A DNA stretch of 36,792 nucleotides from Terriglobia bacterium (GTDB lineage: Bacteria > Acidobacteriota > Terriglobia > Terriglobales > Acidobacteriaceae). Below are positions 5,799-7,175 of the stretch, piece after piece. Numbering within the stretch: position 1 is the stretch's first letter; the number at the start of each line of letters is the position of its first letter. Made by a program: the position numbers and the translations under genes. The notes beneath the pieces were generated by a model that worked only from the letters and a program-made list of their open reading frames with translations, had not been told where the DNA came from and did not search any database. Location: assembly GCA_041498365.1 (NCBI GenBank), contig JBGQIG010000001.1, positions 1-36,792 on the forward strand, written 5' to 3'.

Positions 5799-5892
5799 CT
5801 TCTTTGCGTACTTTGCGTTGCCTTCGCGACCTTTGCGGTCAAAAGCTTTTAACCGCAAAGAGCGCAAAGGAAATTCGCAAAGGACGCGAAGC
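5799..5892. repeat. Palindrome built from phased CTTTGCG / CGCAAAG heptamers
   Basis: The left arm carries 4 copies of CTT(T/C)GCG at 5802, 5811, 5822 and 5831. The right arm carries 4 copies of the complement CG-CAAAG/CGAAG. Spacing is about 9-11 nt around a centre near 5845. Track ORF 5788..6012 is just its translation. Confidence 0.8.
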
Positions 5893-5987
5893 ACTTCAGA
5901 TCAGTCTTCCCAACCCGTGCCTCTAATGGTTCCTCCACTTTTCCACAGGGTTGTTCCAGGCCACTTGTGCCCTAGAGTCAGTTCAGG

Positions 5988-6494
5988 ATGTTGGATCGTA
6001 CTGAAACTCTGACTGTCGGCTCACGGGCGCCAGAGTTCTTGTTGTCCGCCGCGAACCGTGACGGGATTCTCTCGCTTTCCGGCTTCTTGTCGCGGGCGCC
6101 GCTGATTGTGGAATTCCTGCGCGGCACCTGGTGACCGAACTGCGTGCAACGCATGGCTCAGTTAGAGCTGACGAAAAACGAAATCGGTCAGGCCAAGGCG
6201 GAACTCGTGTACATCGCAGCGGAGAAGGCCCGGGGGGTGTGGAACCCGGCAAAGTTTCTGCAGTCGCATCCGGTGTCATTTCCTTTTCTGCTGGATGAGG
6301 ACCGCTCGGTAACCAAAGCCTACGGGCTGTATCACCGGCTGGGCATAGATGCGATCAATATTGCGCATCCAGCGACGCTGGTGGTCGAGCGCGACCGCAA
6401 GGTGACATACATCTATCGCGGGGACAATCAGACGGATCGGGCGCCCTTCAATCAGGTGCTGGAGGCGGCAAAGAAGTTATCGGTTTCGAGTTGA
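5988..6494 (+). CDS. AhpC/TSA (peroxiredoxin-like, thioredoxin-fold) protein with in-frame TGA at the active-site Cys position; candidate selenoprotein (alternatively a pseudogene)
   Basis: ATG 5988 is the first start after TAG 5973-5975. It opens 48 codons ending ...PLIVEFLRGTW, then TGA 6132-6134, then the same frame continues PNCVQRMAQLE... to TGA 6492-6494. The joined ~168-aa product has the family layout, and the TGA sits in the RG-x-W-C-P-x-C motif. The track shows only 6144..6494. Confidence 0.6.
6150..6173 (+). promoter_or_regulatory. Candidate bacterial SECIS stem-loop downstream of UGA 6132
   Basis: Upper stem 6154-6159 (UGGCUC) pairs with 6165-6170 (GAGCUG): 4 Watson-Crick and 2 G-U pairs. 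The apical loop is AGUUA, with G in the second loop position, 25 nt after the UGA. A possible lower stem is 6150-6151 with 6172-6173. An alternative hairpin is 6141-6145 with 6149-6153. Folded by eye only. Confidence 0.3.
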
Positions 6495-6545: not shown

Positions 6546-7175
6546 ATGAAAAAACTATCTGTACTGTTTTGCGTGTTGTTGCTGGCGGCTGCGGCGGTGG
6601 CGCAGACCAACATGTCGTTGCCCGCAGGCACGGCGTTCAAAGTCAAACTGGAGAACACGCTGTCCACTTTCTCCAGCAAGGAAGGCGATCCCTTCTCAGG
6701 ACGGGTTACGGAGGCCGTAATGCTGGATGGGAAAACCGTCATTCCCGTCGGGACTACGGTGCAGGGTCGGGTCACAAAGGTCAATGAACCTCGCCGCATT
6801 GCAGGCAAACCGACGATCGGAATTTTCCCGGAGACGGTGGTCCTGCCCAACGGCGAGCGCTACATGCTTAACGCGGTGATGGTGGACACCAATCTCCGCA
6901 ACGGAACCGACGTGAATACCGAAGGCCAGTTCAAAGGTGACGGCCACGACGGGAAAGATCTGACCGAGATCGGCTTCGGAACCGGCGGCGGCATGCTGAT
7001 AGGCGGACTCGCGGCCGGGGGCAAAGGCCTGCTGATCGGAGGAGGGGTTGGCGCCACCCTCACGGTCGCGCATTGGCTGGGAAAGAAACGTTCGGCGGTG
7101 CTGCCGTCAGGCACAGAGCTGATGATGGAATTGAGCCGTCCACTGGAGATGACTGCCCAGAGCGGAGGACAATAA
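6546..7175 (+). CDS. Secreted hypothetical protein with C-terminal glycine-zipper segment
   Basis: 209-aa ORF with GGAGG 6-10 nt upstream of the ATG. Signal peptide MKKLSVLFCVLLLAAAAVAQ. The central region loosely recalls TrbI/VirB10-like beta motifs (LPAGTAFKVKL...VIPVGTTVQGRV). The C-terminus has GGGMLIGGLAAGGKGLLIGGGVGA. Confidence 0.7.
   Translation: MKKLSVLFCVLLLAAAAVAQTNMSLPAGTAFKVKLENTLSTFSSKEGDPFSGRVTEAVMLDGKTVIPVGTTVQGRVTKVNEPRRIAGKPTIGIFPETVVLPNGERYMLNAVMVDTNLRNGTDVNTEGQFKGDGHDGKDLTEIGFGTGGGMLIGGLAAGGKGLLIGGGVGATLTVAHWLGKKRSAVLPSGTELMMELSRPLEMTAQSGGQ

Follow-up and report, generated by a model that had tools for sequence, protein, structure and literature searches.

Peroxiredoxin-like (Prx-like) selenoproteins with a UxxC motif, and bacterial SECIS elements that lie within the open reading frame, are textbook matter in the selenoprotein field. 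Selenoproteins of the Prx-like thiol:disulfide oxidoreductase type (UxxC/UxxU, PF00578) include ‘Prx-like 1’ and ‘Prx-like 3’ (pfam08534) of the GOS survey (PMC1794560, PMC2398784), and a catalogue of 2026 lists a ‘Redoxin family protein, PF08534, UxxC, HEU0032618.1’ (PMC13188914). Bacterial SECIS (bSECIS) criteria specify an apical loop of 3–9 nt on an upper stem of 4–16 bp, situated 16–37 nt past the UGA, with the loop pattern N1-G-[G|U]-N-N2 (PMC13188914, Fig. 2). The gene that we describe here shares much with the Prx-like UxxC selenoproteins: the same Pfam families, selenocysteine (Sec) substituting for the first CxxC Cys, a Trx/Prx-like fold, a SECIS candidate within the reading frame just 3' of the UGA, and Cys homologues that are far commoner than Sec forms. 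It differs in provenance and in its RNA: the earlier Prx-like selenoproteins came from Deltaproteobacteria, Clostridia and marine metagenomes (PMC1794560, PMC2398784), whereas this one belongs to the Terriglobia, a soil lineage of the Acidobacteriota, and carries a two-hairpin element of its own.

The gene lies on the forward (+) strand of a 36,792-nt stretch of Terriglobia DNA, ‘the window’, and was brought to our attention by an earlier sequence-only reading, which took an in-frame TGA for a possible Sec codon. Every coordinate in that reading proved correct, base for base. The start codon, ATG 5988–5990, is the first start past the in-frame TAG 5973–5975 and stands at the same position in the orthologues, whose N-termini begin alike (M-[LQS]-[DN]-[RH]-T-E-T-L). 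From it the frame runs for 48 codons (MLDRTETLTVGSRAPEFLLSAANRDGILSLSGFLSRAPLIVEFLRGTW) to TGA 6132–6134, then continues open (PNCVQRMAQLE...) until the true stop codon, also TGA, at 6492–6494. Interrupted by that one TGA, 5988–6494 forms a complete candidate selenoprotein coding sequence of 168 codons, Sec49 included. We consider it highly probable that this interval is one gene, encoding a cytoplasmic 168-residue selenoprotein: an oxidoreductase built on a Prx-like (BCP) scaffold, with Sec49-Pro-Asn-Cys52 as its redox centre. On the comparisons that follow, UGA 6132–6134 almost certainly encodes Sec in the active site.

The open reading frame list of the window gives the gene as two halves, 5988..6134 (48 aa) and 6144..6494 (116 aa, GTG start), and gene callers annotate precisely this. 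Taken literally, such annotation describes two products, a 48-aa peptide ending at the UGA and a 113-aa part begun at ATG 6153 (or the longer form from GTG 6144). It is exceedingly unlikely that the cell makes these as separate proteins: one thioredoxin-fold domain would be severed ahead of its active-site helix and lose the redox centre, the internal Met codon lies inside conserved hairpins, the Cys-type orthologues are single proteins of 165–175 aa, and both halves co-vary as one family. The joined protein, which the sequence-only reading had put at about 168 aa, matches PF08534 over residues 10–158 (E = 4.9e-21; 75.5 bits, cutoff 26.6) and PF00578 (E = 2.7e-17; 63.3 bits, cutoff 26), and both matches span the TGA.

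Among all full-length homologues, the column of the TGA is the first Cys of RGTWCPNC, the placement that had been proposed for it, and it is occupied by Cys, never by Trp or Gly. The closest structural and sequence matches are BCP/PrxQ proteins (PDB 3hjp, 2cx3 and 5epf; TM 0.86, E = 3e-14). An AlphaFold model of an 85%-identical Cys orthologue (pLDDT 90.9) superimposes on Bcp4 (3hjp) with a TM of 0.86, and in this model residue 49 directly precedes helix 50–60, so that U49-P-N-C52 stands at the N-terminal end of helix 1 in a thioredoxin-like fold. The invariant Pro128 (codon 6369–6371, in IAHPA) is unchanged in two alignments and falls opposite the Prx catalytic Arg in a profile alignment to BCP 2cx3; it would correspond to the cis-Pro loop of the Trx fold.

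The description ‘peroxiredoxin-like’ in the sequence-only reading holds for the scaffold, which is of the BCP/Prx-like kind, but not for the active site, which is a CxxC of the thioredoxin/ResA type with the Prx catalytic residues replaced. In BCP/PrxQ, and in the TxxU selenoprotein PrxU, the corresponding positions are Pro, Thr/Ser and Arg; here they are Arg45, Sec49 and Pro128. PrxU differs further in that its Sec occupies the peroxidatic-Cys position, which here is held by Cys52, three residues past the Sec. Judged by these predicted active-site residues, the accurate label is Prx-like thiol:disulfide oxidoreductase rather than peroxiredoxin proper, because the Prx residue opposite the Sec is the Thr/Ser of PxxxTxxC rather than the peroxidatic Cys, and the catalytic Arg has become Pro. 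The NCBIfam models for PrxU (NF040737; 17.1 bits, cutoff 270) and BCP (NF006960; 30.5 bits, cutoff 140) score the protein below their cutoffs, as does that for SelL-related redox proteins (NF040769; 43 bits, cutoff 120), a partial match confined to residues 29–115. ResA and TlpA are anchored in the membrane and lie outside the cytoplasm. The motif context G-T-W-C-P-x-C resembles theirs, and the Sec column coincides with the first Cys of the ResA CxxC (Bacillus subtilis ResA, PDB 1st9 and 3c71). Unlike them, the protein described here has neither signal peptide nor anchor, and its scaffold is nearer to BCP/PrxQ.

Orthologues of both kinds anticipated by the sequence-only reading, Cys-type and TGA-type, were found. 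Within the species-representative genomes of Terriglobia we compared the 80 closest orthologous loci: 75 have TGA at the same column, down to 65% protein identity, and the remaining five have TGT or TGC. On this alignment, an in-frame TGA shared at one column by 75 of 80 loci is far beyond what chance would give. Codon-position entropies indicate coding constraint on either side of the TGA, upstream (0.68/0.32/1.31) as well as downstream (0.58/0.51/1.33). A single window would by itself be insufficient to exclude a recent nonsense mutation, and hence a pseudogene, or a miscalled TGC/TGT. That either accounts for the codon is nonetheless scarcely credible, given that the same TGA recurs in 75 species-level assemblies that are independent of one another and stem from several projects and sequencing platforms, that NCBI, JGI and Logan contigs bear identical protein halves, and that both halves are under purifying selection, with a conserved RNA element following the codon.

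That element consists of two adjoining hairpins. Hairpin A (6141–6153, UGCGU-GCA-ACGCA; 5-bp stem and triloop) lies between the UGA and the SECIS core, and its 5' arm includes the codon UGC of the resolving Cys52 (6141–6143). Hairpin B (6154–6170, UGGCUC-AGUUA-GAGCUG; loop 6160–6164, with invariant G6161 and U6163) is the candidate core; the sequence-only reading had drawn it by eye, and RNAfold recovers it in the window. RNAalifold, applied to 65 orthologues, predicts A and B independently. Hairpin A (−3.7 kcal/mol in the window) pairs in 99.7% of cells over the 65 sequences, with U-A, U-G or C-G as the closing pair. In hairpin B the loop reads R28-G29-K30-U31-N32, with G29 and U31 invariant in all 77 Sec-type genes; positions 28 and 32 pair as A-U or G-C in 30 of 65 sequences, covarying from A-U to G-C, while changes at the base of the stem are limited to G-C/G-U or U-A/U-G. 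In about one-third of the sequences a C.A mismatch interrupts hairpin B. Taken together, the two-hairpin model pairs 91.9% of cells and has 12 cells changed on both sides, values matched by none of 500 shuffles. The element's high conservation keeps covariation modest.

Synonymous sites tell of the same constraint. Only four synonymous codons are frozen among 97 tested, and all lie within codons +1 to +12 (4/8, versus 0/89 elsewhere; Fisher p = 2e-5). Third positions +11, +20, +29 and +35 are invariant, and the first two of these frozen sites fall within hairpin A. The codon for Cys52 is UGC in 77/77 Sec-type genes, whereas the five old Cys-type genes all use UGU. Neither hairpin is present in these old genes, among them L043, where different codons spell the same peptide MAQLE; L093 and L095, whose TGT is recent, retain both.

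Hairpin B conforms to the bSECIS criteria for stem, loop, spacing and loop G: it has a stem of 5–7 bp and a loop of 3–5 nt that starts 25–26 nt past the UGA, in keeping with the apical-loop G and the spacing of about 25 nt that had been foreseen. It thus resembles the bSECISearch model and the SelB-binding hairpin of the Escherichia coli fdhF type in its 3–5 nt loop with G at loop position 1 or 2 followed by G or U, its N1:N2 closing pair, its distance from the UGA, and its site within the coding sequence. It departs from the bSECIS consensus in being short and often mismatched, and in its spacer, where instead of a lower stem taking in the UGA there is a separate and equally conserved 5-bp hairpin, A, adjoining the core. 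Whether the folding energy satisfies the bSECIS rule (≤ −7.5 kcal/mol) depends on the element counted, hairpin B alone giving −6.1 kcal/mol and A plus B −10.4. The SECIS loop of acidobacterial fdhA, GGUCU, has the signature G-[G/U]-U in common with hairpin B.

Other folds fared less well. The minimum-free-energy structure of 6132–6195 contains a lower stem, UGACCGA/UCGGUCA, that is specific to the window, its 3' arm not being conserved in the orthologues. A competing helix of +4..+10 with +27..+33 is 89% compatible with the alignment and has no excess of covariation (424 of 500 shuffles do as well or better); it is less likely than the two hairpins. Rfam yields no match over the window at gathering thresholds, and the sole match at E ≤ 1 around the gene, mir-790, we ascribe to chance (24.6 bits; gathering score 63).

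From this anatomy, decoding can be pictured as follows. As the ribosome nears UGA 6132–6134, SelB-GTP carrying Sec-tRNA(Sec) would bind the apical loop of hairpin B at G6161/U6163, and Sec would be inserted in place of termination. Hairpin A would occupy the spacer, its probable role being to set the geometry or to stack on hairpin B. In the finished enzyme, Sec49, at the N-terminal end of helix 1 and opposite the Pro128 loop, would act as nucleophile; when the enzyme reduces a disulfide, or possibly a hydroperoxide or sulfenate, a Sec49–Cys52 selenenylsulfide would form, and a thiol reductant such as thioredoxin would recycle the enzyme.

The residue inserted at a UGA is not readable from sequence alone, and recoding might in principle deliver something other than Sec: a selC* tRNA(Cys) with a SelB paralogue could insert Cys, or the hairpins could stimulate near-cognate read-through by Trp, Cys or Arg. 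Some bacteria do have a selC*/SelB* system, and Acidobacteria harbour unusual allo-tRNAs that resemble tRNA(Sec) (PMC7609411). The selC* tRNA(Cys), however, has been reported only in Firmicutes, Thermodesulfobacteria, Nitrospirae and Proteobacteria (PMC7609411), the loop and spacing described above fit a SECIS of the SelB type, and to reach Cys by a detour through UGA would bring no obvious benefit when TGY is one base change away, a change that several lineages have made at this codon. Relatives, moreover, carry the canonical machinery: in a related acidobacterial MAG (L097), tRNA-SeC(UCA), selA and selD adjoin selB, and a TGA-containing fdhA is present as well. We therefore consider recoding to a residue other than Sec very unlikely, and retain Sec as the product of UGA 6132–6134.

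SelB is found, too, in named Terriglobales (Edaphobacter, Tunturiibacter, Granulicella and Terracidiphilus), and Occallatibacter riparius is listed as Sec-utilizing (PMC12013277, Table 2 and Data S1). None of the SelB matches is tied to a contig carrying the TGA-redoxin. We found selA, selB, selC or selD neither in the 36.8-kb window nor in some 634 kb of orthologous Terriglobia neighbourhoods, the 634 kb having been probed with E. coli SelA/B/D, acidobacterial SelD/A/B and tRNA-Sec, and the three Occallatibacter selenoproteins, the last of which matched nothing there.

A wholesale change of genetic code, with UGA read as Trp or Gly (codes 4/25), has in its favour that some database entries show Trp at this codon (RGTWWPNC). 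In the RGTWWPNC entry, though, the codon is TGA and the product is mismatched under table 11, and the Trp is for that reason a gene-caller artefact. TGA is moreover a normal stop here, terminating 9 of the 23 major open reading frames of the window, this gene included, and the homologues have Cys at the column. The probability of reassignment is, in our judgement, negligible. A scan of the window for other pairs of open reading frames split by an in-frame TGA returned about 90 candidates, among which GC3 did not discriminate. Scanning around the gene for sigma-70 and terminator consensus sequences gave nothing useful, and the CGCAAAG repeats at 5854–5891, considered as an operator, have no counterpart upstream in 57 of 84 orthologues.

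With Sec accepted at residue 49, the gene is of a known selenoprotein type, and what it calls for is a correction of annotation, with no new mechanism. The catalogued HEU0032618.1 may belong to the same family, because its HE* accession style matches that of soil TPA MAG proteins (e.g. HEY1270527.1); the comparison with WP_010940744.1 and HEU0032618.1 is one of descriptions only. Two selenoprotein inventories credit Acidobacteria with very few members (PMC1794560, Table 2; three in Occallatibacter, PMC12013277), and the present gene adds a widely conserved candidate to this abundant soil phylum. A bolder proposal, which we put forward tentatively and think considerably more apt to be wrong than right, is that the tandem hairpins A and B constitute a distinct, lineage-specific class of SECIS in which both are needed, and that the redoxin is, for aerobic soil Acidobacteriota, a major selenoprotein so far left out of the count. 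Soil selenium supply would then be tied to the redox physiology of these bacteria, and repeated Sec-to-Cys reversions would mark lineages that have lost access to selenium or lost sel genes.

The Sec and Cys forms trace a history in which Cys was ancestral, Sec was gained once, and at least four reversions followed. The single-base changes at the UGA codon gave several lineages their TGY, and some revertants still carry a fossil SECIS. The family offers a clean natural series for studying the origin and decay of SECIS elements.

The prediction that automated annotation would truncate the gene is borne out: public databases systematically hold one of two wrong forms, a 113-aa fragment or a protein whose Sec is replaced by Trp, and functional or comparative analyses of redox metabolism in Terriglobia inherit the error. 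The 113-aa fragment, from which the active site is missing, accounts for about 50 of the best 120 clusters listed, and recurs on NCBI, JGI and Logan contigs.

The in-frame TGA at 6132-6134 very probably encodes selenocysteine (Sec), which would make 5988-6494 (+) a genuine Sec-encoding gene. In the window sequence an in-frame TAG (5973-5975) precedes ATG 5988, which opens 48 codons ending in EFLRGTW; past TGA 6132-6134 the unchanged frame reads PNCVQRMAQLE and continues to TGA 6492-6494. Mechanical ORF calling breaks this frame into two pieces, 5988..6134 (48 aa) and 6144..6494 (116 aa). The frame and coordinates proposed by the sequence-only reading, a candidate selenoprotein split by the ORF caller, match the sequence exactly, and the interpretation is supported by the position of the TGA on a CxxC cysteine, by its conservation, and by an RNA element. 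TGA terminates 9 of the 23 major ORFs in the window, this gene included, so the code is standard and recoding must be local.

Translated with Cys at the TGA, the gene gives a 168-aa product with two Pfam matches, Redoxin (PF08534; 4.9e-21; residues 10-158, profile 2-148 of 148) and AhpC-TSA (PF00578; 2.7e-17). These are the two profiles named in the sequence-only reading, and both matches run continuously over the TGA position. NCBIfam matches are all sub-threshold: SelL-related (43 bits vs 120), PrxU (17 bits vs 270), ResA and BCP. Among the matches listed from 5.8 billion protein clusters, homologues form two populations: full-length proteins (165-175 aa, 55-86% identity), and many 113-aa proteins (81-92% identity) that represent the C-terminal 67% only and have the Met within RMAQLE as their first residue. 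All of the listed full-length homologues carry RGTW-C-PNC in the alignments, which puts the TGA precisely at the leading Cys of the CxxC motif, as in the sequence-only reading.

The TGA is conserved. A homologous locus whose product is 87% identical (L005) has the same in-frame codon. Scanning bacterial genomes, one per species, gave 279 loci with relatives; the best 80, which were kept, all come from Terriglobia/Acidobacteriota MAGs, are as little as 65% identical to the window protein, and carry TGA (75/80), TGT (3/80) or TGC (2/80) at the column. Entropy per codon position (1/2/3), computed over 77 distinct TGA-type sequences, is 0.68/0.32/1.31 in the 20 codons before the TGA and 0.58/0.51/1.33 after it. 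This pattern on both sides indicates that the two halves are under protein-coding selection in one frame, which excludes a pseudogene, a sequencing error at the TGA, and a pair of separate genes.

Just downstream of the UGA, entropy is suppressed at every codon position (0.22/0.15/0.74 over +3..+38, in nt after the UGA, for the same 77 sequences). Third positions are frozen in UGC at +11 (77/77), CGC at +20 (76/77), G at +29, and GAG at +35 (77/77). Across the whole gene, 97 codons with a conserved amino acid include 4/8 frozen synonymous positions in codons +1..+12 vs 0/89 elsewhere (Fisher p = 2e-5). Single-sequence folds, RNAalifold and explicit pair counts converge on a pair of adjacent hairpins. 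Hairpin A (6141-6153; UGCGU-NNN-RCGCA) is paired in 99.7% of cells, with a closing pair of U-A, U-G or C-G. Hairpin B (6154-6170; (U)GGCYC-RGKUN-GAGYY(R)), the SECIS core, is the stem-loop that had been folded by eye. Its loop, R-G-[G/U]-U-N, begins 25-26 nt past the UGA and contains invariant G6161 and U6163, an apical-loop G lying within the expected ~40 nt. Changes at its base pairs are only G-C to G-U or U-A to U-G; pair 28:32 switches between A-U and G-C, and about one-third of sequences tolerate a C.A mismatch. None of 500 column shuffles reaches the two-hairpin model in cells paired, in cells changed on both sides (12) or in covariation score, and the model collapses on sliding by 1-3 nt; a competing long-range helix shows no excess over shuffles. 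The bSECIS rules (PMC13188914, Fig. 2 legend) specify a loop of 3-9 nt, a stem of 4-16 bp, a spacing of 16-37 nt, an energy of <= -7.5 kcal/mol, and a G in the first two loop positions (N1-G-[G|U]-N-N2). Hairpin B agrees in loop, stem, loop-G pattern and spacing; the energy rule is reached only when hairpin A is counted (B alone, -6.1; A+B, -10.4). This conserved spacer hairpin beside the SECIS core is the only structurally unusual feature.

Cys-type genes serve as natural controls. In five Cys-type genome loci (L038-L041 and L043) neither hairpin can form, and the second Cys codon is UGU rather than UGC in all five. L043 keeps the MAQLE peptide and encodes it with GCG CAA CUU GAA, vs GCU CAG UUR GAG in TGA-type genes. 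The loss of the hairpins, together with these codon changes, places the nucleotide conservation of TGA-type genes at the RNA level rather than the protein level. Three close Cys-type genes found in metagenomes, L093 and L094 (protein P0013 in both) and L095 (protein P0001), carry TGT in place of the TGA (L093:3145, L094:3145 and L095:353) and retain nearly intact versions of both hairpins. These hairpins look like fossil SECIS elements left by a one-base Sec-to-Cys change; the five genome loci are older Cys lineages in which the hairpins have been lost. In an NJ gene tree without support values, distant homologues are all Cys, and the TGA genes form one large clade with at least four Cys lineages nested inside, which suggests one Cys-to-Sec gain and then repeated reversion. 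The family offers a natural set of cases in which to study how SECIS elements are gained and decay.

No tRNA genes or Rfam matches were found in the window, and no selA/B/D, tRNA-Sec or other known acidobacterial selenoprotein genes in the window or in ~634 kb of orthologous neighbourhoods, as expected because this DNA is one locus sampled many times. Acidobacteria have been credited with three selenoprotein families (PMC1794560, Table 2), and a cultured member of the Terriglobales, Occallatibacter riparius, is listed as using Sec, its selenoproteins being an AhpD-like protein, a deiodinase-like protein and FdhA (PMC12013277, Table 2 and Data S1). With the Occallatibacter FdhA as query, all of the best 120 matches are ~890 aa at 83% coverage, indicating that these relatives are cut at the Sec codon. 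A 4.03-Mb contig of an acidobacterial MAG (L097) carries a compact Sec island at L097:9452-19423 (ena:ERZ25039523:contig_2649): fdhA with an in-frame TGA at ENQARI*HSASVPG, fdhB-like and nrfD-like genes, tRNA-SeC(UCA) on the opposite strand, selD, selA and selB. Its SelB has homologues (52-73% identity) in Edaphobacter, Tunturiibacter gelidoferens, Granulicella and Terracidiphilus. The fdhA SECIS in L097 and a second locus, L096, has the apical loop GGUCU at a distance of 21 nt, counted from the U of the UGA, and has the G-[G/U]-U loop signature in common with hairpin B.

An AlphaFold model of an 85%-identical Cys orthologue (pLDDT 90.9, pTM 0.89) places residue 49 immediately before helix 50-60. 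Its closest structures are BCP/PrxQ peroxiredoxins (top 3hjp, TM 0.86), and the closest solved relatives by sequence are A. pernix BCP and B. subtilis ResA. By profile alignment, the peroxiredoxin catalytic set is absent: the Pro and Thr/Ser of PxxxTxxC are Arg45 and Sec49, Cys52 occupies the peroxidatic position, and the catalytic Arg is replaced by invariant Pro128 (IAHPA). The G-T-W-C-P-x-C of ResA, in contrast, aligns residue by residue with the redoxin active site. Together these point to a thioredoxin/ResA-type CxxC, here UxxC, on a BCP scaffold, in keeping with the Prx-like UxxC family proposed earlier. The protein is of the 'Prx-like thiol:disulfide oxidoreductase' type of selenoprotein, a known kind catalogued since 2004-2008 (PMC1794560; PMC2398784, 'Prx-like 1/3'); a 2026 list includes 'Redoxin family protein, PF08534, UxxC, HEU0032618.1' (PMC13188914, Table 1), an entry that may represent the present family. 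It has no signal peptide and is therefore taken to be cytoplasmic.

The gene adds a new member to this kind, one that is both widely distributed and mis-annotated, and the value of the finding lies mainly in annotation. On NCBI, JGI and Logan contigs it is called as a 113-aa fragment, at times with a separate 48-aa piece, bearing out the forecast that automated annotation would truncate or split it. A second kind of mis-annotation puts Trp at the Sec column: the database proteins P0023, P0024 and P0028 read RGTWWPNC, as do some JGI entries. In one of these, on L092, the codon is TGA (L092:589-591) and translation table 11 does not reproduce the product. This is a code-4-style mistranslation, the gene caller evidently having taken TGA for Trp on a short contig.

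Synteny is kept at TGA- and Cys-type loci alike: enolase (- strand), the redoxin (+), a gap of ~50 nt, a secreted Gly-zipper protein gene (209-230 aa), GH57 (- strand), then GlgB and LptF/G. In the window the product of the Gly-zipper gene (6546-7175, +; 209 aa) has a signal peptide at its N-terminus and, at the C-terminal end, a glycine-zipper-like stretch (IGGLAAGGKGLLIGGGVGATL); no family was found for it in Pfam or NCBIfam. The gene starts 52 nt past the redoxin stop, with no terminator-like site found between, and so the two may be co-transcribed. Upstream of ATG 5988, ~80 nt (~5910-5987) contain blocks conserved even among orthologues ~65% identical as proteins (alignment A4): first CCCGTGYCT-N4-TGGTTC, next, in many of them, (T)TTGTTCC, and last, 8-10 nt ahead of the ATG, TG-N3-TA[GC]AGTC. 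With 16-17 nt between them, TTGTTC and TA[GC]AGT resemble a putative -35/-10 pair, from which the transcript would have almost no leader; one clade does not conserve the -35 element, which makes this only a lead. The in-frame TAG 5973-5975 falls within the putative -10 box. Three or four copies of CGCAAAG/CGCGAAG, 9-13 nt apart, lie between enolase and the redoxin (5854-5891); they are missing upstream of 57 of 84 orthologues and are probably incidental. One MAG holds two nearly identical TGA-type copies (L032 and L033, on CAVXXN010000004.1 and CAVXXN010000001.1), each within ~2-3.5 kb of a contig end, and the pair could be a real duplication or an assembly-breaking repeat.
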